Of a stretch of DNA of 64,000 nt, positions 6,732 through 42,572 are shown piece by piece. Each line of letters starts with the position of its first letter. The stretch's first letter is position 1. Both the position numbers and the translations under genes were made by a program. The stretch comes from Bifidobacteriaceae bacterium (GTDB lineage: Bacteria > Actinomycetota > Actinomycetes > Actinomycetales > WQXJ01), in NCBI GenBank assembly GCA_031268215.1, contig JAIRXP010000051.1, forward strand, positions 43,992 to 107,991. The letters run 5' to 3'. The notes under the pieces were generated by a model. That model was not told the DNA's origin, made no database searches, and saw only the letters and a list, made by a program, of their open reading frames with translations.

Positions 6732-7529
6732 TTGCGGCCGGAAACTGCGCTATCCCCAACTCCGCCCGTAGTCGAGGCCGACGCGATCTGTTTCGACTAC
6801 GGGCGGCGACGGGCACTCACCGAGGTGTCTTTCGCGCTGACGAGCGGCCTGTGTGCACTCCTTGGGCCCAATGGTGCCGGGAAGAGCACCTTAATCAGCG
6901 TCCTGTCTGGTCTTGTCAAGCCCAGTTCAGGTCGGCTACTTGTAGATGGCACCAGTCTGGATTCAGCCCGTGGCAGATCATTGTGGCGAGCACGGATCGG
7001 ATTCTTACCGCAGAATCCGCACTGGTCGGCGCCCATGACTAGTCGCGCCTTTCTGGAGTATTTCGGTCAGCTAAGAGGGCTGGCCAGGCCAGCGGCGCGT
7101 TCACGCGCTGAAGAATGCCTGGCCCTGGTCGGGTTGGATGACTGCGCCGGCCGGTCGTTGGATCAACTGTCTGGGGGCGAGGTGCGGCGGCTTTTCATTG
7201 CACAGAGCTTGGTGCATGATCCTCAATTGCTGGTTCTTGACGAACCCACCGCTGGCCTTGATCCTTTGGCACGCATTGAACTGCGCGAGTTGATCGACAA
7301 TATGCGTGACGGTCGGATCATAGTCATGGCCACACATCTGCTGGAGGATGTGATACATCTTGCTGCGATGGTCAAGGTCCTTGATCAGGGACGGCTGGTG
7401 TGGCAGGGGTCTGCGGCCGAACTCGGCGCGATCACGAGTCAAGCTGGCCAAGGTTCGTCGCGGCTCGGCTCTCCGGAAGAGCTCGGCTTCGCCGAATTGT
7501 TCGCTGACCACCGGGCGGAAAACGGATGA
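6732..7529 (+). CDS. ABC transporter ATP-binding protein
   Basis: Walker A GPNGAGKST, signature LSGGEVRR, Walker B LLVLDEPT. The TTG start directly follows the upstream stop. Confidence 0.88.
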   Translation: MRPETALSPTPPVVEADAICFDYGRRRALTEVSFALTSGLCALLGPNGAGKSTLISVLSGLVKPSSGRLLVDGTSLDSARGRSLWRARIGFLPQNPHWSAPMTSRAFLEYFGQLRGLARPAARSRAEECLALVGLDDCAGRSLDQLSGGEVRRLFIAQSLVHDPQLLVLDEPTAGLDPLARIELRELIDNMRDGRIIVMATHLLEDVIHLAAMVKVLDQGRLVWQGSAAELGAITSQAGQGSSRLGSPEELGFAELFADHRAENG

Positions 7530-8758
7530 GCGCCGCTAACTGGGCCCGGTGGGCGCCGGCGCCGGTCGGCATTGGGCTGGGAGCGTTCGCCCTGATTGAC
7601 GGCGGAGAGCCCGTCTGGTGGAGCGCGGCGAACGCGCTGAACGCCGTCACTGGTATCTCGATCGTTTACGGCCCCATTCTGACTGGTCTTTGCGCTGGTC
7701 TCTCGGTCTCGACAGTTCGATCAGGTGCGGTGGTCTTGGTACTGGTGCTTCCCGGGCGCGGAGCTGCGAGATGGCTGGGCCGGGAAATCCTGGGTTCGTG
7801 CGGACCGGCGCTAGCGGGCTTTGGGGTTGTCGCCGCTGCCGCACTGGCGGTGGCCGGATGGCACGGTTCGTGGCCGGGAATTGCCCCTTGGGGGCCGTTC
7901 CTCCTCGCCGCTCTGACGATTGTCGCTGCTTGTGCCGTTGGCTGGGCGCTTGGCCTGGTGGCCCCGAGTTGGTTCGCCCCGCCACTGGCGGCGGTAGCGT
8001 TCTATGTGTTGCCGGCTTTCGACATTGGCGGTTGCCGGACGCTGATCGAGTTCGCGGGTAGCACCCTGACCAATAACGCGCTGTACGGGCTCAAGCCCAC
8101 GGCGTTCTGGGCCTTCTGCGCACTGTATGTCGCCTTCCCCTTAGCCTTGGTCTTGGCGGCATTGTTCCGGTTTGGCCGAGACGGGCGGCAGGCAGTTCTG
8201 GCGGGCGTAGCGTTGGCCCTCGCCGGGGCGGTGGCCTACACGATCATCGCTCCCGGCCAGGGTGAGATCTTGCGGGCAGTGTCACGCGACGGCTGGTTCT
8301 GCGCGCCGGTGGGCGGGTCTGGTTCCACGGTCTGCTTGCCGCCTGAGCAGCGCCGCCGGGTAGGGGAGTTCGCTGAAGAACTGAGCGAGCTTGACGAGCG
8401 ACTGTTGGCCGTGGCACCCCAAAGCGGAGGGTGGCGGTACGAACCGCGAGTTGGCTTCCCGGAAGAAGGAGACGGACCAGTCATCGAGGTGGGCCTACCG
8501 GAGGGACCAGAGCCACCGCTGCGCGGTGACCTAGCCGAATTGGCTTCTTGGTCACTTGTTTGGTGCGGGCCGGACATCGAGTTGGCCCCTGAAACCGAGG
8601 AATCCCTAAGGCCGCTTCGGGCCACGGTCATGCTGTGGCTTGATCCGGGCACTTCCGAACAGTATTTGTCCTTCACCGGCGAGTATCCCGCCGCGGCCCC
8701 GACCCTGGATTCGGCCCGGGAGGCGCTGGAGACGGCAAAGTCGATATGCGGCAGTTGA
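7526..8758 (+). CDS. polytopic membrane protein with a soluble C-terminal domain of about 170 aa (putative partner of the ABC ATPase)
   Basis: 410 aa. ATGA overlap with the ATPase gene. About 6-7 hydrophobic helices in the first 240 aa, then a Cys-containing soluble region (WFCAPVGGSGSTVCLPPEQ...WCGPDIEL...KSICGS). No family recognised. Confidence 0.6.
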   Translation: MSAANWARWAPAPVGIGLGAFALIDGGEPVWWSAANALNAVTGISIVYGPILTGLCAGLSVSTVRSGAVVLVLVLPGRGAARWLGREILGSCGPALAGFGVVAAAALAVAGWHGSWPGIAPWGPFLLAALTIVAACAVGWALGLVAPSWFAPPLAAVAFYVLPAFDIGGCRTLIEFAGSTLTNNALYGLKPTAFWAFCALYVAFPLALVLAALFRFGRDGRQAVLAGVALALAGAVAYTIIAPGQGEILRAVSRDGWFCAPVGGSGSTVCLPPEQRRRVGEFAEELSELDERLLAVAPQSGGWRYEPRVGFPEEGDGPVIEVGLPEGPEPPLRGDLAELASWSLVWCGPDIELAPETEESLRPLRATVMLWLDPGTSEQYLSFTGEYPAAAPTLDSAREALETAKSICGS

Positions 8759-9375
8759 CCCATCTGCCGTGGATCAGCCGGTTTCCAGCGACCAGGGGGC
8801 AAGGCCGCGCGTTGCTTGGAGTCTTGATCGGCTTCGTCGCCGTCCTGGTGTGTCCAGCGGGCCTGGAAGACGCCCCGCTCAGAGATGGTGTTTCGGTCTT
8901 GGTGATCCAACTGTGTCCGCTACTGGGGCCGGCCCTGGCCACGTCCTGCTTCGCGTCGCCGGGCCGCCGGCTGGAGCGCCTGGTCGCGGCCCGCCGTGGG
9001 CCCAATCCGGTCGCGCTGCGGCGCGCCATGTGGGGTGCTTCGCTCTCCGTGGGCCTGGTCGCCGGGCCGGTCGCGGCGGGGTTGCTGCGGAACTTTCCCC
9101 TAGACCTGACCGCCGCTTTGGGCCGCAACGCTGTGTTCGGCATCGGCCTGGCCCTACTCAGCGCGGCACTGCTGGCACCCGCGGGCTCCTGGTGTCCAGT
9201 GGTCGCGACCGGTCTTGTTACTTGGGTGTTTGGCGGCCAGGATTCGTTCGGTTCGGTGGTTAGTTGGGCGTTCCTCTTGAAACCTTGGGAAGACTGGCCC
9301 TGGACCGTCGTCGCCGCGCTTATCCTCCTGGTTGGCTTGACTGTTTATGTCTTGTTTGACGGCCGCGAGGCATAA
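8746..9375 (+). CDS. polytopic membrane protein (hypothetical)
   Basis: 209 aa. 13-nt overlap with the previous gene. About 5-6 hydrophobic segments. Last gene of the four-gene unit. Confidence 0.55.
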   Translation: MRQLTHLPWISRFPATRGQGRALLGVLIGFVAVLVCPAGLEDAPLRDGVSVLVIQLCPLLGPALATSCFASPGRRLERLVAARRGPNPVALRRAMWGASLSVGLVAGPVAAGLLRNFPLDLTAALGRNAVFGIGLALLSAALLAPAGSWCPVVATGLVTWVFGGQDSFGSVVSWAFLLKPWEDWPWTVVAALILLVGLTVYVLFDGREA

Positions 9376-9694: not shown

Positions 9695-10837
9695 ATCAGC
9701 GAACCTCGAATCAACGACCGCATCAGGGTGCCTGAGGTGCGCCTGGTTGGCCCCGGCGGCGAGCAAGTTGGGATTGTCAAACTGGATGTGGCGTTGCGTT
9801 TGGCGGCTGAAGCGGACCTTGACTTGGTTGAGGTGGCCGCGGAGGCCCACCCGCCGGTCGCCAAGTTGATGGATTACGGCAAGTACAAGTACGAATCGGC
9901 CCAGAAGGCCCGCGACGCGCGGCGTAACCAGGCCAACACCGTGCTCAAGGAGATTCGTTTTCGGTTGAAGATCGACCCGCATGATTACGGCACCAAGAAG
10001 GGCCATGTGGAGCGGTTCCTGGGACAGGGTGACAAAGTCAAAGTGATGATCATGTTCCGGGGTCGCGAGCAGTCGCGCCCGGAGATGGGTATGCGGTTGC
10101 TCCACAAGCTGGCCGAAGAAGTGGCCGAGTTAGGGACCGTTGAATCCGCGCCGCGCCAGGATGGGCGCAACATGGTGATGGTGCTGGCGCCAGTCAAGAA
10201 GAAGGCCGCTCGCGCTCCAGGCCGCAAGCGCCAGCGTGACGGCGGCTCTGGGTCGCACCACGAGCACCACGAACGCCAAGAGGCGGAGGGTTTTTCTGCC
10301 GATGCCGTCGGGGCACCTCCAGCTCCCCGCACCGAAGATTTGACGCCGTCAGCGCCCGTCGAGCCGGAGGAACTGGCTCCGGCGCAGGCAGCCGCGCCGG
10401 AGACCCAGGCCGCGTCGGCAGAAGTAAGCACGGTAGCGGAGACGGCTGAGACAGAAGCTGTGGCCGCGGTGGAAGCGGAAGAAGTAGCTGAGACAGCGGA
10501 GACAGAAGCTGCGACTACGCCGTCCACGCCGCCAGCGGAGTCCAAGTCTGCGGCGGCTCCAACTGCTGCGGCGAAGCCTGCCGCAACGCCCAAACCGGCC
10601 GCAGTGCCTAGGCCCGCCGCGGCGCCCAAGCCGGCTGCCGTGGCCAAACCGGCTGCCGTGGCCAAACCGGCGGCAGCGCCCAAGCCCACTGCGCCGGCGC
10701 CTAAGCCGGGCGGCGCCGCCAAGCCGTCCCCGCCGCCCAAGTCAAGAACTCAGCCCGCCAAGCCGAGGACGGCTAAACCGCGTTCTGCCCCCGCCGGCCG
10801 GACGCGATCAACAGAAGAACCGACTAAGGAAAGCTAA
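9695..10837 (+). CDS. infC: translation initiation factor IF-3 with a non-AUG (ATC) start and a long low-complexity C-terminal extension
   Basis: The track ORF starts at GTG 9728, but the frame stays open upstream and encodes [11 protein letters not shown], the conserved IF-3 N-terminus. AAGGAG at 9683-9688 lies 6 nt before ATC 9695. Core motifs: [31 protein letters not shown] tail of about 210 aa rich in A, P, K and E follows. Confidence 0.85.
10631..10666 (+). repeat. perfect 18-nt tandem duplication inside the infC tail (ccggctgccgtggccaaa x2, encoding PAAVAK x2)
   Basis: Read directly from the sequence. It sits within a wider degenerate PAA(x)PK and AETAETEA repeat region. Confidence 0.9.
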
Positions 10838-10841
10838 TACC

Positions 10842-11036
10842 ATGCCGAAGAATAAGACGCACTCCGGTGCTAAGAAGCGTTTCCGGGTTACCGGAACGGG
10901 CAAGATCATGCATGAACAGCCGGGCATGCGGCACAACTTCGAATCGAAATCATCGCACCGCACGCGGCGACTGTCCCAGGACAAGGTTTTGGCCAAGGCC
11001 GACCGCCGGGGCGTCAAGCGCCTGCTGGGCCGCTGA
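10842..11036 (+). CDS. rpmI: 50S ribosomal protein L35
   Basis: 64 aa, MPKNKTHSGAKKRFRVTGTGKI, canonical position after infC. Confidence 0.95.
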   Translation: MPKNKTHSGAKKRFRVTGTGKIMHEQPGMRHNFESKSSHRTRRLSQDKVLAKADRRGVKRLLGR

Positions 11037-11063: not shown

Positions 11064-11447
11064 ATGGCAAGAGTCAAGAGGTCAATCAACGCGCGCAAGA
11101 AGCGGCGCTCCGTACTCGAGAAGGCTTCGGGCTACCGTGGACAGCGCTCGCGTTTGTACCGCAAGGCCAAGGAGCAAGTCCAGCATTCCGGCAATTACGC
11201 TTACCGCGACCGGAAGGCCCGCAAAGGCGATTTCCGGCGTCTGTGGATTCAGCGGATCAACGCTGCGGCCCGGGCGAATGGCATGACTTACAACCGGTTC
11301 ATCCAAGGTTTGCACCTGGCTGAGATTGAGGTTGACCGTCGGATGCTGGCGGAAATCGCTGTCACCGATCCGGCGGCCTTCACGCAACTGGTGGCTGAGG
11401 CGAAGAAAGCCTTGCCAGCCGACGTCAACGCACCAGTCGTCGCCTAG
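11064..11447 (+). CDS. rplT: 50S ribosomal protein L20
   Basis: 127 aa, [15 protein letters not shown]...[22 protein letters not shown]. Confidence 0.95.
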
Positions 11448-11482: not shown

Positions 11483-12313
11483 GTGTTGACTAATCCGGCC
11501 TCGGACCGGGTCAAGCGAATTAGGCGCTTGGCCCGGCGTCCAGGCCGCGATGACACTGGTGAACTTCTGGTCGAGGGCCCCCAGGCTTGCCGTGAAGCAG
11601 CCCTGGCCGGGTTGGTGCGGGATCTTTACGCGACGCCTCGGTCACTGGCCTTATACCCTGAGGTCGGCGCTGCCGTGCTGGCCTCAGCTGGACGGTCGCA
11701 TGAGGCCTCCCCAGATTTTGTGCGGGCGGTTTCCTTAGCTTCTCAGGGCATGGTAGCTGAGGTGCGCGATCCCTGGGCGGGGTGGACCGTCGCGGACGGG
11801 TTGGCGGCTTGCCGGCCGGCGGCCGGCTCGCCGGTTGGGCTTGTCGCCGTATTCGAACAGGTCAGGGATCCCGGTAACGCCGGTACCGTCATCAGGGCCG
11901 CCGATGCCGCCGGGGCAGATCTTGTCATATTCGCGGATCAGTCGGCTGATCCGACCGCGCCAAAAGTGATCCGGGCCTCGGCTGGCTCGTATTTCCACGT
12001 GCCTGTCGTGCGGGCAGGACCGGTGGCAGGATTGCTGGCGCAATTGCGGGCGTCCGGGCTGCGGGTGGTGGCGGCGGACGCCTCCGGATCTGTGGTCTTG
12101 GGCTCGGCCAGGCTCAGCCAACCGACCGCTTGGTTGTTTGGCAACGAGGCCCGCGGTTTGACTGCGGGGGCGCGGACTGGCTCGGACGCGGTGGTGCGGA
12201 TACCGATTTACGGGCAAGCCGAATCGCTCAATTTGGCCATGGCCGCGACTTTGTGCTTGTACGCCTCAGCGTCGCAGCGGCGGCTGAGCCCCAGCCGGGA
12301 GCGCTCCCGGTGA
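11483..12313 (+). CDS. TrmH/SpoU family RNA 2'-O-methyltransferase
   Basis: 276 aa. C-terminal SpoU methylase motifs (DPGNAGTVIRAADAAG, FGNEARGL, IPIYGQAESLNLAMA). Synteny after rplT resembles the mycobacterial tsnR position. Confidence 0.85.
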   Translation: MLTNPASDRVKRIRRLARRPGRDDTGELLVEGPQACREAALAGLVRDLYATPRSLALYPEVGAAVLASAGRSHEASPDFVRAVSLASQGMVAEVRDPWAGWTVADGLAACRPAAGSPVGLVAVFEQVRDPGNAGTVIRAADAAGADLVIFADQSADPTAPKVIRASAGSYFHVPVVRAGPVAGLLAQLRASGLRVVAADASGSVVLGSARLSQPTAWLFGNEARGLTAGARTGSDAVVRIPIYGQAESLNLAMAATLCLYASASQRRLSPSRERSR

Positions 12314-13605
12314 AGCGGTCATCCAAAGACATCTTCAAGGGCGCCCCAAGAGCGCGGACGGTCATCCTGACAGCGGTGATCGCGGTGTTGTTGGGCGCCG
12401 GCGGAGCCGTTGGCACGTGGGCACAGGCGACCGCCAAGGCTGTGGCCGCTGACTTTGGCGAGCTGGAACCCACGGATGGGCTATATGTGATCACGCCGGG
12501 CCAGTTGATCACTGTGGGCTGGTCTTCGCAGCCGGCCGGCCTATTCATGGACAAGGTCACGCTGGAGTCGGGTGAGCCCGCGGTGATACGTGTCTTGGGC
12601 GATGGCAACCAGTTCACTGTTGAGGGCGTGGCGCCGGGAGAAGCGACCATCACACTTAGTTCCGCGCGCCGCCGAGCCGTCCAGGAGTACTCGTTCGTTG
12701 TCTCAGTGCTTCCGTCTGGCCTGACCGGCCTGCCAGCGGATCTGGTACTGAACGTTGACGAAACCAGCCAGTTGGAGCCAGTGATTGAGCCGGCGGAATC
12801 CGCCTATCCGGTCGTGTTCGCGTCAGACAACGATTCGGTGGTCACCGTAGACCGGTGGGGTGAGGTGAAAGCGACCGGTGCCGGCGATGCGACTATAACC
12901 GCTGCCTGCGGCCCCATCGCGGAGCAGATCGCGGTCACTGTACGGCCCAGGGTTGAGTCAGTGGTCTTGCCGGAAGCCTCGGCAGCGCTGGTGCCGGGTC
13001 AGACCTATCAGCTCAAGCCGGTGATTGAGCCGGCCGATGCCGGTGATCAAAGCCTGACGTACTCTTCGAGTAATCCGGCGGGGGCAACGGTTGACGGCAA
13101 TGGTTTGGTCACAGCCCGGTGGGATGCCCGCTTATCGAATGATGCCACCATCACTGTGAAGTCTGCGGATGGACCCTCGGCGGAGTTCTCCGTCCAATGG
13201 TCCAATCCCTATGTGCCCGGACCGGGGAAACAAAGCACTAAGATTCCGGGCACGCCCTTCCTTGTCACGCCAATGGTCTTCGGCTCGCCGGTGCCAGATT
13301 GCGTAGGTCTGACTGTTGGCTACTCCCTGGTCGAGGCGAGTTCGGACGCCGTTTTCGATGAACTCATGAAGGGAAGCTTTGACTTGTGGGTAGCTAGCGG
13401 TTCAGCGAACTGGGCAAAGGTCGGTACGTTCAAGATGGATGGATCTGAATCGACGACAATTCCGGCCGCTTTCTCCGCCCGGCGGGTCTCTCAGTTCGCC
13501 GTTGTGCCATCCAATTCACCGGCCGAACAGGGTGCCAACTGGAACTCCACCTTCACGATCAGTGACGTGCTGTTCGCCGGCCAAGAGCTGGCCGCGGACA
13601 CCTGA
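12310..13605 (+). CDS. membrane-anchored surface protein with bacterial Ig-like (Big_2-type) repeats
   Basis: GTG 12310 overlaps the upstream stop; track ORF 12130 is an over-extension into the methyltransferase gene. N-terminal anchor TVILTAVIAVLLGAGGAVGTWA. Repeated Big_2-like segments (VVTVDRWGEVKATGAGDATITAA; ATVDGNGLVTA...ATITV). Confidence 0.7.
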   Translation: MKRSSKDIFKGAPRARTVILTAVIAVLLGAGGAVGTWAQATAKAVAADFGELEPTDGLYVITPGQLITVGWSSQPAGLFMDKVTLESGEPAVIRVLGDGNQFTVEGVAPGEATITLSSARRRAVQEYSFVVSVLPSGLTGLPADLVLNVDETSQLEPVIEPAESAYPVVFASDNDSVVTVDRWGEVKATGAGDATITAACGPIAEQIAVTVRPRVESVVLPEASAALVPGQTYQLKPVIEPADAGDQSLTYSSSNPAGATVDGNGLVTARWDARLSNDATITVKSADGPSAEFSVQWSNPYVPGPGKQSTKIPGTPFLVTPMVFGSPVPDCVGLTVGYSLVEASSDAVFDELMKGSFDLWVASGSANWAKVGTFKMDGSESTTIPAAFSARRVSQFAVVPSNSPAEQGANWNSTFTISDVLFAGQELAADT

Positions 13606-14148
13606 GGCAGGCGCCAGCGATCAGTGCCGTTGCCGTTGAACACGCGCCAGGGATTCCAGTTTTCCCAGGACGAGGAGTACCTCGGCCCGCGCCGCCGCCA
13701 GGCGAAGGCCGGGAATACGCGAAGTAGTCATCATCATGTCGCCGTACACTCGATTCAGCGGAGAGTGCGTACAACGAAGTACTGGTAAAAGGGGCCGGGC
13801 TTGGGTAGTGGGCCAAGGCGCGGTGATTCACGGGATCATGTTCGTAAGAAGGGGGGCGTAATGGATGCAGAAGCGCTGCCTCGCGTGCAGGGACTTGTTG
13901 TGTTCTGCCGGTATTTGGGCTGTTCGTCTGACCAGTCGGTGGGTGAGTCGTCCGGATACGGATTTGGGATCGAACGGCGGGTGCGGTTGGGGGAATCATC
14001 GAGGACGGTCAGACATTGGAAGCGCGGCGGCACACGGTTGAGAAGCTGCGGAAGCTTGGCGTGTTCACAACTGCTGAGAGGCTCGCCAACGTGCCAGTTG
14101 AGGTCGTGTTGCCACCCGAAGCAAATCCCGACGCGCCCGCCCGCGATT

Positions 14149-15186
14149 CTAGTTCTCCCAAGACGAGTCGACCCATTCGTTGAGCTTTGGGGCGCTCCAG
14201 ATCTCGGCATCCGCTGTGACCAGTCCGCCAGCGATCACACCGACCACAGGAACCACCGGGCCAGCCGCCGCGCCAAAGTTGAAGGCTGTCACCACACCCG
14301 ACATGGTGGCCGTCGCGAGGGCTTCGGCGCTGGTACCGGCCACAGTCCTCCCGGCCCCCTGCGACACGACGCCTTGATTAAACGATTCGCCGTCTTTCAT
14401 ATCCTCGGACACGCCCAGATCGGTGAACCCAGCTCCAACGATCACACCGGAGGCTTTGAGTTTCACGGCTTGGGAACCTAGGACGGTGGAACGCTGCGCG
14501 AGTGTCGCCAGCTCGGGCGTGTGGCTGCCGGCTGATTCCGCCAGGCCCTTTGCGACGTCCGCCAAGCGGTGGGACTTGTATTGGGTCTTGGCTGACAAGA
14601 GGGAGGCTGCCAGGCCGGAACTCCCGCCACCGACGGCGGCAAGGTCCTTAACCCCGAATTGCTCGATTTCCGCTGAAATGTCCTTGAGACGGTCGGTAGC
14701 CTGTCTCAGGTCTTCGAGGACTGTCGCGAAGCGCTTGACCATGTCGTCGAATCTCTGACTCAGTCTGGCCGCGTCCACTAGATCCCAATACCGCGAAGGT
14801 TCGGCGGAACTCAGGGCGTGATCCGGGTATTCGGCATCCGGCGGACCGGTTATGACATTACCGTCGACCTTCAGGCCAAGACCGGCTGCTTCATCCAAGA
14901 GTTTCTTGACCTGGGACTGTGCCTCTTCCAGAGCGGCCGCGTACTCGCGGATGCCAGCGCCCGCCATCTCCGCGGCCTCCATCATTCCGCCAGTGAGTTC
15001 TCGAATCTCACTCATCCGGGCGCTGAACGCCTCGGCGGCTTCACCCCTCCATCCGCCTGTGTCGATGCACCTGGTGGCCATCCTCTTGGCCGCCTCAAGC
15101 TCGGCGCCTAGGTTGTAGCGCAACCAGCTGGCGGAGGCGAAAAGGGCGTCCGGATCGCCTTCAATGCCCACGTCTATTGACATCAT
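14149..15186 (-). CDS. WXG/LXG-like putative type VII secretion substrate with a glycine-zipper hydrophobic C-terminus (candidate membrane-acting toxin)
   Basis: 345 aa. GGAGG lies 7 nt upstream of the ATG. Helical N-terminus with W46-R-G48 (IDTGGWRGEAAEAFSARM). C-terminal segments ASGVIVGAGF and GAAAGPVVPVVGVIAGGLVTA with GxxxG/AxxxG spacing. Confidence 0.55.
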   Translation of the reverse strand: MMSIDVGIEGDPDALFASASWLRYNLGAELEAAKRMATRCIDTGGWRGEAAEAFSARMSEIRELTGGMMEAAEMAGAGIREYAAALEEAQSQVKKLLDEAAGLGLKVDGNVITGPPDAEYPDHALSSAEPSRYWDLVDAARLSQRFDDMVKRFATVLEDLRQATDRLKDISAEIEQFGVKDLAAVGGGSSGLAASLLSAKTQYKSHRLADVAKGLAESAGSHTPELATLAQRSTVLGSQAVKLKASGVIVGAGFTDLGVSEDMKDGESFNQGVVSQGAGRTVAGTSAEALATATMSGVVTAFNFGAAAGPVVPVVGVIAGGLVTADAEIWSAPKLNEWVDSSWEN

Positions 15187-15216
15187 GATGGTTCCTCCCC
15201 CTGCTGGCTTGCCTAG

Positions 15217-15720
15217 CTATTCCGCAGAAACCCAGAAGAGGCTGGTGAATTGGGAGCTTAGCTGGTCCTCATGGGCGGATGCCTCTTCCTGGAAGGTATC
15301 CAATGATGCCGCCACCGCGTCTATCAGTTCCAGGAGGTTCGCGGTCGATTCGGACAAGAATAAGACTTGGCCGGCGGCCTCGACTGTTCCGGGGTCGCTA
15401 GAGGAAGGAATCCGAGGCATGGAATCCGCCATCGTGTCGACTTCCTGGGAACTCCTCCGAAGGTCCTTCAAGAGATCTTCGGTGCTGAAACGGTCTATGC
15501 CGAAGAAGCGGGGCGGTAACGCCGGGGTTCCAGGCCCCGGAGCGCTCTGAAGAGGGGGAGAAGCGGTACCGGCGGTGCCAGTCGGCGCCGGGGAAGCCCA
15601 CCAAGACGGGTCATCCTCGCCGGGTGGCCGGAGGAGATTCCCAAGCAGCCAACCGTCCCCGTTGTCTGCCATGGCCGGATCGGCGGCGGGGCCGGAGTCG
15701 GCGGCATTCGACGCGCTCAT
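15217..15720 (-). CDS. hypothetical protein (Pro-rich disordered N-terminal half, helical C-terminal half); possible secretion partner
   Basis: 167 aa. ATGA start/stop overlap with the upstream gene, 30 nt upstream of the toxin-like gene. C-terminal helix LLELIDAVAASLDTFQEEASAHEDQLSSQF. Confidence 0.5.
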   Translation of the reverse strand: MSASNAADSGPAADPAMADNGDGWLLGNLLRPPGEDDPSWWASPAPTGTAGTASPPLQSAPGPGTPALPPRFFGIDRFSTEDLLKDLRRSSQEVDTMADSMPRIPSSSDPGTVEAAGQVLFLSESTANLLELIDAVAASLDTFQEEASAHEDQLSSQFTSLFWVSAE

Positions 15721-15998
15721 GGCTGCTCCAGACCCCGCGCCTCGGGCGGGATTAATTGATCAACCAGGATCACGTCGAACGGACTGAGGTTGCGGATAGC
15801 TGGGATGCCCTCCCGTTTGACCAGAATCCATTCCGTGCCGGGGCCGGCGCCGTCCTGAAGGCGGTCTAAGGCGGTGTATGCCATCAGTGCGACCTGCCCA
15901 ATCTCGGTGCGCTGCAGAGCGATCCGCCGTTCTTCCGCCCTGGCGTCCCACAGGCACGGCACATATACAACGGGCGGTAAATCAAAGTGCTCGGTCAT
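15717..15998 (-). CDS. small SseB-like / SAV_915-like protein (tentative)
   Basis: Internal ATG (MTEHFDLPPVVYVPC...) gives 93 aa; track ORF 15717..16187 over-extends into the UbiB gene. The pattern YVP...AL.AYT.LD.L...G....W..V.....I......D.ILVD resembles small actinobacterial SseB/SAV_915 proteins (from memory). Confidence 0.4.
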   Translation of the reverse strand: MTEHFDLPPVVYVPCLWDARAEERRIALQRTEIGQVALMAYTALDRLQDGAGPGTEWILVKREGIPAIRNLSPFDVILVDQLIPPEARGLEQP

Positions 15999-16132
15999 CG
16001 GGCTTGAGTCCTTTGGTCCAAGGGTCCAGAACTGTGTTTGACCAAGCCTAGCAGCGTTAGCGGGCAGCCGAAGCTGGTTGGTGGCGCTAAGTGGGTGCGC
16101 GACGGGACCCGCCCTTAGTCCTGCGCTCCATT

Positions 16133-17980
16133 TCAGCGCCCTTGTCCGTGCGGGGACCGGCGCCGCCGTTCGCGCCCAGACGGCCATTGGAACAACATGA
16201 TCAACCCGCCAAGTCCGGTGAGGCTGGCGCCCAGGGGCACAACTAGGCCCGCGACCAGCAATTGAACACCGCTCAGGACCACGATGCCGCCGGTCACCGC
16301 CTTGACAATACGTCCCGTTTGGCGGGCTTCGGTCCGGGCCATGGAGTCGCGTTGCGCCCGCGATAGCCTGACAACCAACTCACCACGGTTGGCCTTGGCG
16401 GCCGCTTCGGTCAGGTTCCGGCCCGTGTCCAGGGCGCCGCTGGCCGCTCGGCGTGGCACCGCGAAGCTGTCCGCGCTCAGCCACCGCGCTAGCCCAGTCA
16501 GGCCAGTCAGCCATCCAGGCTCTCCCGGCGGTCCTTCGTCACCAGGCCCAAAGCCGGCTCCCGGGCCGCCGTTCCCACCCGGCCCGGATGTCCCGAGGAC
16601 GGAGTCGAGCCACCCAAGCCACGGCCCAGCTCCAGGCAGCCCACTAAGCCCACTAAGCCCACCAAACCCGCCGGCGTCCGCCACTGATTCGCGGATCAGC
16701 GGCACCAGCTCTTCCATGAGATTCATCTCCGGATCGAGTTGCAGCGCCACCCCGATCAAGTTGATCAGCGTCTTGCCCAGGAAGGCGGTCTGCCCCGGTA
16801 GCTGGAATGGCTGGGAATACATGAACAGCCGCAGTTCCTCGGTCGTCTCCTGGTCAAGCGGCTTCTTTCGGCTGCCAGCGCCCAGGATCTGGTCCACAAT
16901 CGGTTCAAGGGCCTTGGCCAGCAACTCCTGGTCAGCGTCTTTGTGCAGGAAGCCCATTCGGTCAAGTAGTTGGGCAGCGGTCCGCCAGTTGCGATTGAAC
17001 AGCGCCAGAGCGAGTCGGGGCGCGTCACCGGACAGCTTCTCCGGAACGGTCCCAACCATCCCGAAGTCAATTAGCTCAATAACCCCGTCCTGCCGGACCA
17101 GAATATTGCCCGGGTGCGGATCAGCGTGGAAAAAGCCGTCGCGCAGGATCATTCGGAGATACACGTCCAGCAGATCCCGAGCCAGTTGCCGGCGGTCAAT
17201 TCCGGCCGCGTCGAGCTGGTCGAGCGCGCTGATCTTGACCCCGCCCATTAGCTCCATGGTGAGAACTCGCCGCCGGGTCCAGTCCCAGTAAACGCGCGGC
17301 ATGTCGATATTCGGGTTGAGCAGGAAGCTGGCCTGGAAACGTTCTATATTGCGGGCTTCGGCCTCCATGTCGAGTTCGGCCAGCAGCGTGTCTTCAAACT
17401 CGGTGTAAAACATCTCCAGATCAAGATACTTGCCTGCGCTGGTCAGCCGTTCGAGCCAGCGAAGGATCGTCTTCAACGACCGCAAATCGGTTCTGACCAG
17501 TTCTTCTATGCCGGGCCGCAAGACCTTGACGGCGACTGGCGCTCCGCCCGGTAGCTGTGCCCGGTGGACCTGCCCGAGCGATGCCGCAGCGACCGGCTGG
17601 TCGTCAAAAGACCGGTACGCGACCGCCATTTCTTGGCCCAGTTCACGCTCAATCTCCGCCCTTATGGCAGCGACTGGCACCGCCGGGACGGCATCTTGCA
17701 AGCGCGCCAGTTCAATGGTGTATTCAGTGGGTAACAAATCGACCCGTGTCGAAATATGTTGGCCGAGCTTGATCACTAGTCCGCCCATCTGGGTGGCCAG
17801 TCGCACAAACGTCTGTGCTTGGGCGGCGTAGAGCCGGTGGCGCCGCTGCGCTAGCTGCTTCGGGCTCCTGAACCGACTGGTTTTCGCCAGCCACCACAGT
17901 TGCAAAGCGAAACGCATCGCTATCTGCAGCGTCGCCCGGTAACGGGCCATGCCCGTCAGACGCGAAAAGTCCTTAGCCAT
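16133..17980 (-). CDS. ABC1/UbiB (AarF) family atypical kinase with a C-terminal Gly/Pro-rich region and TM helices
   Basis: 615 aa. ABC1 kinase motifs (AAASLGQVHRA, VAVKVLRPG, FHADPHPGNILV, IDFGMVG). Confidence 0.88.
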   Translation of the reverse strand: MAKDFSRLTGMARYRATLQIAMRFALQLWWLAKTSRFRSPKQLAQRRHRLYAAQAQTFVRLATQMGGLVIKLGQHISTRVDLLPTEYTIELARLQDAVPAVPVAAIRAEIERELGQEMAVAYRSFDDQPVAAASLGQVHRAQLPGGAPVAVKVLRPGIEELVRTDLRSLKTILRWLERLTSAGKYLDLEMFYTEFEDTLLAELDMEAEARNIERFQASFLLNPNIDMPRVYWDWTRRRVLTMELMGGVKISALDQLDAAGIDRRQLARDLLDVYLRMILRDGFFHADPHPGNILVRQDGVIELIDFGMVGTVPEKLSGDAPRLALALFNRNWRTAAQLLDRMGFLHKDADQELLAKALEPIVDQILGAGSRKKPLDQETTEELRLFMYSQPFQLPGQTAFLGKTLINLIGVALQLDPEMNLMEELVPLIRESVADAGGFGGLSGLSGLPGAGPWLGWLDSVLGTSGPGGNGGPGAGFGPGDEGPPGEPGWLTGLTGLARWLSADSFAVPRRAASGALDTGRNLTEAAAKANRGELVVRLSRAQRDSMARTEARQTGRIVKAVTGGIVVLSGVQLLVAGLVVPLGASLTGLGGLIMLFQWPSGRERRRRSPHGQGR

Positions 17981-37390: not shown

Positions 37391-39709
37391 TTAGGAGGGA
37401 CTGGCGGTCCGACGGCGGGAGACCCGGTGTAGCACCAGACCGGTGCCTATTGCGAGAATCCCGGTGCCTGCCAGGAGCGTCAGCTCGGGAGCACCCGTCA
37501 AGGGAAGGCCTGCACCTGACGGAGCAGCGCTACCCGATCCGGGCGCGGACGCTCCTTGGGCCGCTGGCGGATCCTGCGGTTCCGGGGGAGATATCCCGGC
37601 GGCGGGATCGGGATCCAGCGGATACCAGCCCAGAGGCGGGCAAACCCCGGGGGATCCCTCGTCACAAGACGGCTCGCCGGTGAAGTACTCGACGGTCACG
37701 TAGGTGTCCTGAGCGCCCGGAGTGGTCAGCGGCCACCACGAGATATCCTCCGGTCCTGGGCCACCGGCCGCCGGTACCACGGCTTCCCAAGTCCAGTAGG
37801 GATCGATTCGCGGTATGGCGACTTCCTCAAATCCGGCTTCCGATGTGCCCAGGGTCTTGCCCGTGGCCTCGTCATAGTCCAGTTGCCAAATCATCGACTG
37901 GGTGATTGGCGCTGGCGTCTGGTCACCGGCACCAATGAACTCAATGAAGCGCTCGGCCTGCACTGAGGCGTAAGTGTGGTGGTGAGTCAGGCGCACGGTA
38001 ATGACCGGTGTCTGATTCGTGTCCGCGGCGAAGGACTCAACATTCTGGATGGCGTCTATAACGTAGCCATCAGGCAGGCAAGCGAGGGCCTGTTGTTCGG
38101 TGAAGCCGACCAGTGCGGAAGGCTCACCCTTCAGCACGGAACAAGTGGCCGGATCAAGCGGCGTGACACTGAGTTCCGGCGCACCGCCGGTTTCGGTGTC
38201 AAGGTAAACCACTCGAACTTGGGCCACGCCGGGCTCAGGCGTGGGCTCTGGGCCGGATGCCGCCGTCACGGTAGTTGTGTCGGAGGCTTCGTTGTCCGCC
38301 GGTGACAGGTCGCGCTGGGCGCCATCGTCGTGGACGGAAGCGGTGGCCTGGATCACGGTTCCAACGGCGGCTTCCGGCTTAGGCGACCATTCAACCGTGT
38401 AGGTCAGGTCAGCGCCGGGGGCCAAAGAAGTGGTGGGCCAGGTGATGCGGGTGACATCCCCGGGCTGTGCTGTGGCGGTGCCGCCGCTTGAAATGGGCCC
38501 CAGGTCGACCGGGCCGGTCAGTTGCGCCTCGACTTCAACGCCGTTGGCCTGGGCTAAACCGTTGTTTGAAACCCGTATCTGAGTTGTCGCCGTCTGGCCG
38601 ACCGGAGCTTCGTCCTGGCCGTCGTCAATGGTGACGGCCAGATCCGGCCGTTGGACAACTACGCTTACGCAACCGTTCAACAGAGCGTCAAGCACCGGCT
38701 GCGGGTCTTTGGCGAAGTCCCCGATGTCGAACCAGGCGCCGTTGGAATCAAGCGCGAGCTGCTGGTAGTCCGCCACATCCACGGCGGGTTCAACAACGGA
38801 GAACAGTGTGGCGTCGTTGTCCTTCAGGGCCTTGGCCGCCTGTTCCACCGAGACGTTGTTGGTCTGGGTTTTCTCGTCGCCAATCAGGACCAAGCAGCGG
38901 CCCGCTTCAGGCCGTAACCCCATACTGGGCTGCAGGGCGTGAGCAATGGCGTCGGTACCCCATTCCAGGTAGCCATCGTCATGAAGGGTCGCGACTGCGG
39001 CGCTGAAATCGGCCAGGGAGGCAGTCGCCGGGGTCACCGTGTAGGGAGCCTGACTGGCCACCGAACTAGTTCCAAAGCCAACCAGGCCTAATCTGTGGTC
39101 AACGGACTTGGCCAGAGTATTGGCGATCGTATTGAGGTTGTCTTGAATCGCTGTGTGGTACTGCATGGTGGATCCAGATTCATCGACAACGAACACCACG
39201 TCTGCCTGGGGCTGGCCGAACTGACCGTATTCGGCGGTCGCTTCAATTGGGCCGGAGGGGCTGTTGTGTGATCCGTCTGGTGAGTCGGTCAGCCGGGCGG
39301 TCACCGACTTCGAGGGGGACCAGGGAACGCGCAATTCAGCCGTGCCATTGGCGTCAGTGACGACGGTCTGGGAGAACCCATCGGTAGTGACCAGAACCGT
39401 CGCGCCGGCCAGGTCGTTCCAGTTTGACGGGCCGAAGGCCTTGATCCTGAGTGTGACCTGGCCATTCGTCAGGGTACCCGCTACGGGATAGATCGACAGG
39501 TAGGCCTGGGCCTTCACGGTGACCTCCTGTTCTGCGGCGGCATTGGACGTGAGCGCGGAGGCGATGAATCCGGCGCCGGCCAGCGCCAGGGCGGCGCCGC
39601 CGGCCACGAAATGGGTCAATGGCCGTCTGATGGAATCGCGCAGGCGCCGGTGTCTGGGCCGCTTGGGGTCATTTCGGAGCGCATGGGCGGCGGGCGGGTG
39701 TAGTCGCAT
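37391..39709 (-). CDS. LPXTG-anchored surface protein: VWA (MIDAS) domain, DUF11-like repeat and MucBP-like repeats (paralog 1)
   Basis: Start at ATG 39709 (MRLHPPAAH..., AAGGCAG upstream). Signal/TM FVAGGAALALAGAGFIASAL. MIDAS motif VVFVVDESGST. DLAVTIDDG...VSNNG is DUF11-like. VRVVYLD...PDGYVI is MucBP-like. The C-terminus has LPLTG, a hydrophobic helix and an RRR tail. Confidence 0.8.
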   Translation of the reverse strand: MRLHPPAAHALRNDPKRPRHRRLRDSIRRPLTHFVAGGAALALAGAGFIASALTSNAAAEQEVTVKAQAYLSIYPVAGTLTNGQVTLRIKAFGPSNWNDLAGATVLVTTDGFSQTVVTDANGTAELRVPWSPSKSVTARLTDSPDGSHNSPSGPIEATAEYGQFGQPQADVVFVVDESGSTMQYHTAIQDNLNTIANTLAKSVDHRLGLVGFGTSSVASQAPYTVTPATASLADFSAAVATLHDDGYLEWGTDAIAHALQPSMGLRPEAGRCLVLIGDEKTQTNNVSVEQAAKALKDNDATLFSVVEPAVDVADYQQLALDSNGAWFDIGDFAKDPQPVLDALLNGCVSVVVQRPDLAVTIDDGQDEAPVGQTATTQIRVSNNGLAQANGVEVEAQLTGPVDLGPISSGGTATAQPGDVTRITWPTTSLAPGADLTYTVEWSPKPEAAVGTVIQATASVHDDGAQRDLSPADNEASDTTTVTAASGPEPTPEPGVAQVRVVYLDTETGGAPELSVTPLDPATCSVLKGEPSALVGFTEQQALACLPDGYVIDAIQNVESFAADTNQTPVITVRLTHHHTYASVQAERFIEFIGAGDQTPAPITQSMIWQLDYDEATGKTLGTSEAGFEEVAIPRIDPYWTWEAVVPAAGGPGPEDISWWPLTTPGAQDTYVTVEYFTGEPSCDEGSPGVCPPLGWYPLDPDPAAGISPPEPQDPPAAQGASAPGSGSAAPSGAGLPLTGAPELTLLAGTGILAIGTGLVLHRVSRRRTASPS

Positions 39710-39764
39710 AGTTTTCTGCCTTGTGGGTCGTGTCCCAGGACGCCTAAGCGGGCGGGCCCTGAAA

Positions 39765-39784
39765 CGGGGGTAATAGCACTTAGG
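39765..39784 (-). promoter_or_regulatory. conserved upstream motif shared by both LPXTG paralogs (sense: TAAGTGCTATTACCCCCG)
   Basis: 56-75 nt upstream of start 39709. Its counterpart is at 42384-42406 (sense: TAAGTACTACTACCCCCG). Promoter or operator candidate. Confidence 0.4.
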
Positions 39785-39932
39785 TCCAAAGCTATCATTG
39801 TGCGCTGGGTGGGTCAACGCGGGCTCAGCGACGTGTCTGGGCGAACCAGAGCCGGCCCAATTCGTCAAAGTTGAACTGGCCGGACGGCCCAGATGCGCGG
39901 ACGGGGCCCGCATTTTAGCAGCGAGCGGCGCA

Positions 39933-42322: not shown

Positions 42323-42383
42323 TGTCCGAACCTCAGTAGATCTAAGGCTCCCGCATTGGCTAGGGATTAGCCTCCGCGAGAGG

Positions 42384-42406
42384 CGGGGGTAGTAGTACTT
42401 ACTGGA
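42384..42406 (-). promoter_or_regulatory. second copy of the conserved upstream motif (sense: CCAGTAAGTACTACTACCCCCG)
   Basis: 62-84 nt upstream of start 42322, the same relative position as 39765-39784. Confidence 0.4.
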
Positions 42407-42572
42407 AAACCTAGCAGGCCGCGGGCGGGACGTCAAAACGGCGCGCCAGGCGCGCCTTCCGAAGCGGGTTACGCCCGTTCTCCTGCGTAGTTAGAGCGGA
42501 AATCAATCAAGTCTGGGAATCAGGGGCCTGGCATGATAGCACGGGTCCGCAAGTCCGCATACCGTGAGCAGA

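Follow-up and report, generated by a model that had tools for sequence, protein, structure and literature searches.

The subject of this analysis is a group of three linked genes, here called g1, g2 and g3, on the minus strand of a 64-kb stretch of a Bifidobacteriaceae genome (contig JAIRXP010000051.1 of assembly GCA_031268215.1); that whole stretch is referred to below as the window. We found that g1, g2 and g3, together with a fourth gene, g4, in relatives, form a conserved actinobacterial cassette. Judging from sequence comparison, we hold with slightly better than even confidence that the three genes of the window are a copy of this cassette and that g3 is a type VII-secreted protein with a membrane-active glycine-zipper tail.

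The cassette became visible through the g3 family, which was surfaced only by exhaustive HMMER searching; word-indexed searches gave almost nothing, whether the query was g3, the family alignment or g1. The exhaustive search recovered at least 120 cluster representatives at E ≤ 1e-3, many of them 340–425 aa long and aligned over their full length. The best relative of the window protein is 36% identical to it, and there are two close relatives in all (36% and 31%). All relatives with a named source come from Actinomycetota, and the named carriers include Bifidobacteriaceae metagenome-assembled genomes (MAGs), Schaalia, Sanguibacter, Haloechinothrix, Actinoplanes and Pseudonocardiaceae. Their source labels read "hypothetical", "WXG100 family type VII secretion target" or "YukE". 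A metagenome scan seeded with the three Bifidobacteriaceae proteins returned two unrelated WXG proteins and nothing else. To describe gene contexts, we scanned 7 homologue loci and 28 further loci from species-representative genomes with hidden Markov models (HMMs) built from the first 6–9 seed loci. The further 28 loci were gathered with Actinoplanes/Pseudonocardiaceae subgroup A5, so the context statistics describe that clade and not bifidobacteria. Within this sample, every one of the 26 independent loci whose g3 is complete or nearly so (27 cassettes) has g1 and then g2 directly upstream of it, in the same orientation and in most cases with overlapping ends. A sequence-only reading of the window had proposed that the two small upstream genes are partners of the 345-aa gene, and their conservation across these loci bears this out. 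Directly downstream of g3 lies g4, present in 22 of the 25 independent loci with downstream sequence and constant in order and strand. It encodes a protein of 247–343 aa with about four hydrophobic, presumably transmembrane, helices followed by a soluble domain, for which neither Pfam nor NCBIfam holds a family; a sub-threshold score against the STM3941 family of NCBIfam (E = 0.001) was not used as evidence. The cassette is spread over Actinoplanes, Salinispora, Pseudonocardiaceae, Sanguibacter and Schaalia, and it occurs in Bifidobacteriaceae MAGs as well; among its carriers are Actinoplanes lobatus (GCA_014205215.1), Schaalia sp. Marseille-Q2122 (GCA_903645355.1) and Sanguibacter suaedae (GCA_016342785.1).

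Several arrangements in relatives argue for toxin–immunity logic in this family. Schaalia sp. carries four tandem g4 paralogues whose membrane halves are 37–45% identical and whose soluble C-terminal halves are 77–93% identical. Actinoplanes lobatus has two complete cassettes in tandem, and one Streptosporangiales MAG has two g1-g2-g3 sets. At two loci (L031 and L035), a C-terminal fragment of g3 stands alone and is followed by g4 or a g4 remnant, forming orphan cassettes. Finally, in protein P0105 a g3-type N-domain (IDT...GDP...WLR...WxG...GLxVxGxxIxxP) is fused to an Abhydrolase_8 domain, with a g2-like gene encoding a YRRAD motif upstream and a gene that opens with a lipoprotein signal peptide downstream. 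The reuse of heads, the orphan payload–immunity cassettes and the arrays of immunity genes expected of polymorphic toxins are found at the level of the family only.

Some individual loci show other arrangements. Two loci without g4 have a different multi-pass membrane protein beside g3, which is CPBP/Rce1-like at L005 (11323..12096, minus strand) and an unrelated open reading frame (ORF) with four transmembrane segments at L033 (11196..12077, plus strand); both may be alternative immunity genes. At L039 (6001..7596), residues 1–268 of the called 532-aa protein (P0079) are a g3, and what looks like a frameshift leads from there into the membrane half of g4; the fusion is either a pseudogene or a sequencing error.

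The head of g3 is related to known type VII substrates. The window protein matches Pfam T7SS_signal (PF21725) at E = 3.4e-5 (24.3 bits against a cutoff of 27, model positions 69–154 of 241), WXG100 (PF06013) at E = 6e-4 (20.4 bits against 27.3) and, likewise below threshold, EspA_EspE at E = 9e-3. All of its Pfam matches are confined to residues 8–95. Against the NCBIfam model WXG100_ESAT6 (TIGR03930) it scores 21.8 bits, with a cutoff of 44.85. Of 37 g3 homologues, 18 match T7SS_signal at E ≤ 0.01, the best at 6.4e-7. A profile built from the 37 full-length family members matches EsxA crystal structures (PDB 2vs0, E = 7e-5) and picks out several EsxA/EsxB structures specifically. The EsxA match taken together with the scores below cutoff indicates that g3 is related to the WXG100 superfamily without being a member of the WXG100 family itself. 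WXG100 proteins are stand-alone proteins of ~100 residues, whereas g3 is a multidomain protein of 345 aa in which the hairpin is the first part. The hairpin has the expected form, with W46-R-G48 (within "IDTGGWRGEAAEAFSARM") at the turn, and the conservation of W46 and of G48 is at least 90% among the 37 homologues. The full set of invariant or near-invariant columns is G10, W21, W46, G48, A83, A100, G104, L105, P115, S275, P313 and G320, and the middle linker of the protein is poorly conserved across the family alignment. In the second-closest homologue (P0003, L002 10001..11134), the hairpin turn reads F-x-G ("FFEGQ") instead of W-x-G.

Structure prediction agrees with this assignment. In the AlphaFold2 (AF2) model of g3, 10-residue means of the predicted local distance difference test score (pLDDT) are at least 89 over residues 1–170, with a dip to 70 at residues 121–130, and the mean is 78 at residues 171–180. 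The head is modeled as a strand (3–5), a helix (12–41), the WRG turn, a second helix (49–102), a beta-hairpin (106–113) and a third helix (130–186). The Foldseek match of highest probability is PPE15 (5xfs_B, from the PE8-PPE15-EspG5 complex; probability 0.99, TM-score 0.59 on the target, E = 0.28). PPE4 and EspB are also returned. None of these matches has an E-value below 0.28, which is weak, and long helical bundles of a generic kind, among them BAR-domain proteins, reach similar E-values. We propose that residues 1 to about 186 form a WXG100/PPE-like helical domain, which the model places with confidence, and that this domain would serve in secretion targeting. The sequence-only reading had given the 345-aa protein a WXG-type N-terminus, and the T7SS_signal, WXG100 and EsxA matches and the PPE15/EspB-like model all agree with it. 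Its LXG label has to be dropped, because the Pfam scan at E ≤ 1 gave no match to LXG (PF04740) and the families matched by the 37 homologues do not include it. Its statement that no existing family could be named holds in the sense that no curated family spans the full length of the protein.

The second component of the cassette resembles the partners of such substrates. In mycobacterial type VII substrates, a WxG turn on one partner and a YxxxD/E motif on the other make up a composite export signal. Residues 73–167 of the window g2 are homologous to the 93–106-aa proteins found at the equivalent position in relatives (45% identity over 69 aa to the L001 orthologue, E = 1.3e-15), and a g2 HMM in which the window sequence is 1 of 8 seeds matches the window ORF at E = 7e-32. 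The window protein itself has no match in Pfam or NCBIfam. Among its orthologues, that of L004 reaches 23.4 bits against the Pfam family T7SS_ESX_EspC (PF10824), for which the cutoff is 23.5, and that of L007 reaches 20.7. Over its whole length, the g2 profile also shows a weak alignment to EsxB/CFP-10 (E about 0.1). A comparison of the g2 and g3 profiles with each other was not significant (probability 23%). A Y-x3-D/E motif is located 12–18 residues from the C-terminus in 30 of 37 g2 proteins, and those of L006 and L022 have FxxxE.

The first gene of the cassette encodes a small protein of a different kind. It is a member of the SAV_915 family, matching the NCBIfam domain SAV915_dom (NF042914) at E = 3.8e-14, with 52.2 bits against a cutoff of 40, in line with the SseB/SAV_915-like label that the sequence-only reading had used. 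Its orthologues in L004 and L006 exceed the Pfam cutoff for the N-terminal domain of SseB, and with the Sanguibacter orthologue it shares 45% identity (E = 1e-22). Its profile found no meaningful relative among solved structures, and an AF2 model from a shallow alignment was unusable (pLDDT 43.6). The literature searched mentions neither SAV_915 nor SseB in a functional context. We propose that g1 could act as a cytosolic chaperone or adaptor of the cassette.

The tail of g3 has the composition and motifs of a glycine zipper. Its last 105 residues contain 15% Val, 15% Ala and 14% Gly, and Kyte–Doolittle hydropathy (19-residue window) has its maximum of 1.87 centered on residue 314. Strict 9-residue glycine-zipper motifs start at residues 247, 301 and 316, and two more occur at 183–195 in the linker. 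The C-domain is laid out as a short hydrophobic helix, a D-x3-G-E-S-x2-Q-x3-S motif and a Pro-kinked, hydrophobic Gly/Ala/Val stretch bearing zipper motifs. Across the family its consensus is [basic]-G..G..LT..GI..D...GES..QA..SN..G.AAS.AAGAA.GT.IP.P.VGTV.GA.VG..VGIFTSG.VD...EN, in which the D, the S, several G and the final D are invariant. The window tail thus has the extended zipper of TspA-, TelE- and EsxX-type toxins, although in a weaker form than the GxxxGxxxGxxxG of the family. The C-domains of relatives give weak Pfam matches to Gly-zipper_Omp, Gly-zipper_YMGG, DUF1269, Bacteriocin_IIc and Rick_17kDa_Anti and to no other kinds of family, and the C-domain profile has no meaningful relative among solved structures. 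A sub-threshold match of the Schaalia g3 C-terminus to the T6SS effector BTH_I2691 family of NCBIfam (E = 0.007) was not used as evidence. These features accord with the hydrophobic glycine-zipper C-terminus described in the sequence-only reading, and we propose that the C-terminal domain is a putative membrane-inserting payload.

A number of observations weigh against this reading, beginning with those on the link to a type VII machine. Each Pfam or NCBIfam match of g3 falls under its curated cutoff. No type VII core gene (EccC/EssC, EccB, EccD or mycosin) lies in the 64-kb window, in which no ORF is longer than 840 aa and the largest ones encode VWA/DUF11/MucBP surface proteins, a biotin carboxylase, an FtsX permease and housekeeping enzymes. 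Nor does any lie within 10 kb of any of the ~35 related loci, and type VII loci are only sporadic among Bifidobacterium genomes (PMC4965825). Because core genes are absent from the vicinity of every locus, the case for type VII dependence is one of homology and motifs. The idea of the sequence-only reading that g3 is a candidate type VII effector is supported for the family by its WXG and YxxxD/E signals and toxin–immunity arrangements, and lacks the support of ESX core genes in the window. In addition, the two closest relatives (L001 and L002) carry g2-g3-g4 but lack a g1 within 10 kb, which makes g1 dispensable in these two at least. No experiment or paper on any member of the g3 family was found in the literature searched.

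It is thus worth asking whether the cassette might be unrelated to type VII secretion altogether, with g3 a tail-anchored or membrane-associated coiled-coil protein of the producer that acts in envelope stress or membrane organization and resembles WXG proteins only as any helical hairpin would. We regard this as very unlikely. It would account for the sub-threshold level of all WXG-type matches of g3, for the BAR-domain and other long helical bundles at similar Foldseek E-values and for the lack of type VII genes near the loci, but it leaves unexplained why the two near-invariant residues W46 and G48 fall precisely on the hairpin turn and why the family profile is specific for EsxA/EsxB structures. 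It also fits poorly with the fixed position of YxxxD/E in 30 of the 37 g2 copies, with the borderline EspC match and with the WXG100, EspC and YbaB genes found within 3–5 kb in the Sanguibacter and Schaalia loci.

These neighbors of related cassettes can be described more closely. In Sanguibacter suaedae (L004 14047..16056), 3 kb from the cassette, lie genes for a YbaB-like protein, a 308-aa WXG100_2 protein, an EspC-family protein and a second YbaB-like protein; by its gene content, this cluster looks like a separate type VII-substrate module. The Schaalia locus has a WXG100 gene 4.4 kb from the cassette. On the contig of the closest relative, a gene for a 103-aa TipC-family protein (PF28027; L001 10288..10599) lies 6.4 kb from the cassette; TipC is the immunity protein to the type VII toxin TelC (PMC12744356).

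A further point on the negative side concerns the tail, since pLDDT is below 50 over the C-terminal ~100 residues of g3 and the model offers no confident structure there. An alternative that accepts type VII export is that g3 is not a weapon but a substrate that works in the producer's own membrane or envelope, for instance as a channel or as a factor for development or envelope remodeling; g4 would then be its membrane partner or receptor. The type VII-type signals would be the same under this alternative as under a toxin model. The chromosomal location of the cassette among housekeeping genes, without compositional anomaly, is consistent with it, as is the conservation of the g3 C-domain across the family, where a hypervariable domain is not seen. 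Moreover, a g4 homologue is missing from the window copy and from four relatives, an absence that a harmless g3 would make easier to tolerate. Nonetheless, we consider this alternative unlikely, because g4 arrays that diverge in the membrane half alone, duplicated cassettes and an orphan g3 fragment with g4 are hallmarks of toxin–immunity systems, and because the N-domain has been reused with a hydrolase payload beside a lipoprotein gene.

The remaining points against the toxin model come from the window copy itself. A g4 gene is absent from the whole window; tblastn with three g4 proteins and the g4 HMM run on the six-frame translation gave nothing better than E = 0.15. Hence, the immunity gene that would be expected directly downstream of a polymorphic toxin is not found in this copy. 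The gap at its place contains ORFs whose translations are not protein-like and that fail a filter on GC by codon position, with no membrane-protein ORF and no terminator; the idea of an RNA element in the gap was dropped, as Rfam gave no match. In the window g2, Ala occupies the position of the Tyr ("EEASAHED"), so the YxxxD/E motif is missing from this copy. The last zipper helix of the window g3 reads GVIAGGLVT-ADAE with a 4-residue insertion (SAPK), that is, GxxxGxxxT followed by acidic residues. The window g2 also carries a Pro/Ala/Gly-rich extension (residues 1–72) that is absent from the 93–106-aa homologues and specific to this copy. With no g4, a Tyr-less g2 and a shortened zipper, the window copy may be a weakened, re-purposed or orphan version of the cassette.

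A stronger form of this idea sees the window copy as an orphan in decay: the immunity gene and perhaps the secretion system have been lost, and what is left of the cassette is silenced or no longer functional. At the level of the family, this overlaps with the toxin model, and for the window we judge it quite unlikely. It would explain the empty 543-bp gap where g4 should be, the loss of the g2 tyrosine, the 72-residue low-complexity extension of g2 and the shortening of the zipper by acidic substitutions and an insertion. It would also suit a protein with just two close relatives (36% and 31% identity) in a group where type VII secretion is sporadic (PMC4965825). Decay is harder to reconcile with three intact frames, a GC content at third codon positions (GC3) of 0.69–0.72, translational coupling and a strong ribosome-binding site. 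The window g3 has the family-consensus residue at all listed invariant or near-invariant columns (alignments A1 and A2), among them D262, G266, E267, S268, Q271, S275, P313, G320 and D340; the exception is A272, where the window protein has Gly. Furthermore, the Tyr-less g2 is common to the window and two Bifidobacteriaceae relatives, which suggests a lineage-specific form rather than recent decay.

Returning to the type VII model, we envision the following mechanism for the family. The EspC/EsxB/PE-like g2 would pair with the WXG/PPE-like g3 head in an elongated bundle of helices, which in most family members would bear a two-part type VIIa signal: WxG in g3 and, in the C-terminal arm of g2, YxxxD/E. 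In the cytoplasm, g1 would act as a chaperone or adaptor, so that the hydrophobic tail of g3 stays soluble or does no harm until it is exported. The complex would then leave the cell through the action of an EccC/EssC-type ATPase whose gene lies elsewhere in the genome. Once outside, the g3 C-domain, with its D-x3-GES-x2-Q motif and its proline-kinked glycine-zipper hairpin, could insert into a membrane, oligomerize and dissipate ion gradients, as TspA, TelE and EsxX do, and in relatives g4 would be the immunity factor that protects the producer and its kin. If so, g1-g2-g3-g4 would be the first described antibacterial, membrane-depolarizing toxin system of the actinobacterial type VII pathway, with its own pre-secretion complex of g1, g2 and g3 and, in g4, a new immunity family. 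We put this larger claim forward tentatively, at somewhat less than even confidence.

The proposed system shares its general design with toxins of the type VIIb pathway. Glycine-zipper type VII toxins need small helical partners, cytosolic neutralizers and polytopic membrane immunity proteins (PMC12744356, PMC10434224, PMC7456083, PMC12478183), and in the EsxX, TelE and TspA systems the small helical partners bear the export motif, with soluble proteins binding the zipper in the cytoplasm (PMC12744356, PMC12478183). Like TspA, TelE, EsxX and LXG-T2 of Firmicutes, g3 combines a helical targeting head, a linker and a Gly-rich hydrophobic C-domain (PMC7456083, PMC10434224, PMC12744356). As in the Firmicute systems, one or two small helical partner genes lie directly upstream together with a gene for a small extra cytosolic protein. 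Downstream of g3, members of the family also have a gene for a polytopic membrane protein, which at times, like TsaI, is present as a tandem array. However, g3 has no LXG match and the partners are not Lap proteins (DUF3130, DUF3958, DUF5344 or DUF5082). Whereas Lap partners have an FxxxD arm, the g2 family has the actinobacterial YxxxD/E; the partner role would be analogous and not homologous. The additional small protein g1 is SAV_915/SseB-like and not DUF5085 or DUF4176, and g4, with its roughly four transmembrane helices and soluble domain, is a new family distinct from the Firmicute immunity families DUF443, DUF5079 and DUF5080. The host phylum is Actinomycetota and not Firmicutes, and the payload is likened to TspA, TelE and EsxX by layout, not by sequence similarity.

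A closer analogy can be drawn to the type VIIa pairs EsxA/EsxB, PE/PPE, EspB and EspC. Here too a WxG hairpin lies on one protein, g3, and YxxxD/E near the C-terminus of the other, the family g2. The N-domain model of g3 superposes on PPE15, PPE4 and EspB, and the g2 orthologues are linked to EspC by a borderline score and to EsxB by a weak end-to-end alignment. The third small gene, g1, could parallel EspG, the chaperone of PE/PPE proteins; no relationship between g1 and EspG was detected. Unlike PPE proteins (PF00823), which carry Pro-Pro-Glu near the N-terminus, g3 has no PPE match in Pfam and no PPE motif, with G-D-P at residues 10–12, so that the likeness is structural only, and one g3 relative alone gave a weak match to the PPE family. 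The cassette also lies outside any ESX locus, and a proposed membrane-inserting C-terminal payload combined with an immunity-like neighbor was not found for type VIIa in the literature searched. On balance, the sequence comparisons make a type VIIa pair (EsxA/B or PE/PPE) the better analogy for the cassette than LXG/Lap. The sequence-only reading had presented the locus as an actinobacterial counterpart of Firmicute LXG, TspA and TelE toxins; of this, the glycine-zipper layout and the small partners are retained, and membership in the LXG/Lap families gives way to a type VIIa layout. A 2023 review (PMC10765036) reports a comparable two-part signal for WXG100 dimers and associates no LXG proteins with the type VIIa secretion system. 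Zhang et al. 2012 used comparative genomics to predict polymorphic toxins with WXG heads in Actinobacteria (PMC3482391). With those toxins the g3 family has in common a WXG-type head joined to a C-terminal payload, the existence of orphan cassettes, reuse of the head (with Abhydrolase_8) and, in relatives, a downstream gene of immunity type. That catalogue lists mostly enzymatic toxin domains and has zero occurrences of "glycine zipper" or "SseB" (PMC3482391).

The features of the window locus are collected in the following table.

Coordinates of the g1-g2-g3 cassette and its parts in the 64-kb window
Feature	Position	Strand	Description
g1	15717..15998	-	93 aa, SAV_915 / SseB-N-like; start at the internal ATG 15998 of ORF 15717..16187(-)
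g2	15217..15720	-	167 aa; conserved EspC/EsxB-like helical hairpin at residues 73-167 (15217..15504)
g3	14149..15186	-	345 aa; WXG-type head and glycine-zipper tail
g3 N-terminal domain, residues 1-186	14629..15186	-	WXG100 / T7SS_signal / PPE-like helical bundle with small beta-sheet
g3 WXG motif W46-R-G48	15043..15051	-	Turn between helices 12-41 and 49-102; AF2 secondary structure
g3 middle helical linker, residues 187-242	14461..14628	-	AF2 helices 190-219 and 224-263, pLDDT 50-74
g3 C-terminal domain, residues 243-345 and stop	14149..14460	-	Hydropathy, motif scan and family alignment
GGAGG ribosome-binding site of g3	15194..15198	-	7 nt 5' of the ATG at 15186; read from sequence
Gap at the position of g4 in relatives	13606..14148		543 bp without a convincing gene

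The gene calls hold up on inspection. The 93-aa start of g1 agrees with the NCBI annotation (P0131, LBJ02_06155) and avoids the overlap with the upstream UbiB/ABC1 gene (16133..17980, minus strand) into which the longer ORF would run. The stop of g1 and the start of g2 share 4 nt ("ccATGAgc"), and g2 and g3 are separated by 30 nt (15187..15216). The sequence-only reading had described these same junctions, including the ATGA overlap, the gap and the GGAGG 7 nt upstream of g3, and all are as it reported; W46-R-G48 and the Gly/Ala/Val-rich tail can likewise be read directly in the translation. GC3 is normal in all three ORFs (0.72 in g3), and since homologues exist for each of them, we take g1, g2 and g3 to be genes and not chance ORFs. 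Given that the family consensus of g3 begins MxIDT, the second ATG (344 aa) may be its true start.

The cassette sits among ordinary chromosomal genes. The UbiB/ABC1 gene encodes a 615-aa atypical-kinase homologue with a Gly-rich stretch and a C-terminal hydrophobic segment. Its end lies 134 nt before the start of g1, and as both genes are on the minus strand they may be co-transcribed. The plus-strand gene at 12130..13605, which converges on the 3' end of the cassette, encodes a protein of 491 aa that has a hydrophobic segment at its N-terminus and Big_2 Ig-like domains in tandem (E = 1.4e-24). Farther away, an infC (initiation factor IF-3) homologue (9728..10837, plus strand; 369 aa) has a normal core of ~165 aa followed by a tail of ~200 aa that is acidic and then Ala/Pro/Lys-rich and repetitive; rpmI (10842..11036) and rplT (11064..11447) come after it. 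Two overlapping genes on the plus strand (7526..8758 and 8746..9375) encode hydrophobic proteins of 410 and 209 aa that have a multi-pass look, and neither has a Pfam match. Two adjacent minus-strand genes (37391..39913 and 40097..42436) encode surface proteins of 840 and 779 aa with VWA and DUF11/CARDB domains, the second also with MucBP_2 and Muc_B2; they look like adhesins or pilus-tip-type proteins. Two other identities for the locus were tried and rejected. An anti-phage defense system had no match in PADLOC, and a plasmid-borne element was dismissed because there were no plasmid matches and no GC anomaly and the neighbors are housekeeping genes.

Finally, our analysis bears on the question of what type VII secretion does in Actinomycetota. 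To our knowledge, antibacterial toxins delivered by type VII systems have been shown experimentally in Firmicutes only, and no report of an experimental type VII antibacterial toxin in Actinomycetota was found in the literature searched. The value of the window copy itself is smaller than that of the family, because it is atypical and has no immunity-like gene. The cassette nevertheless provides a concrete system for asking whether ESX-type machines serve interbacterial competition, both in soil actinomycetes and in the host-associated Schaalia and Bifidobacteriaceae, and for asking how a hydrophobic payload stays harmless before export. If the model is true, three protein families that are so far unannotated would gain a role, namely SAV_915, g4 and the hairpin family of g2.

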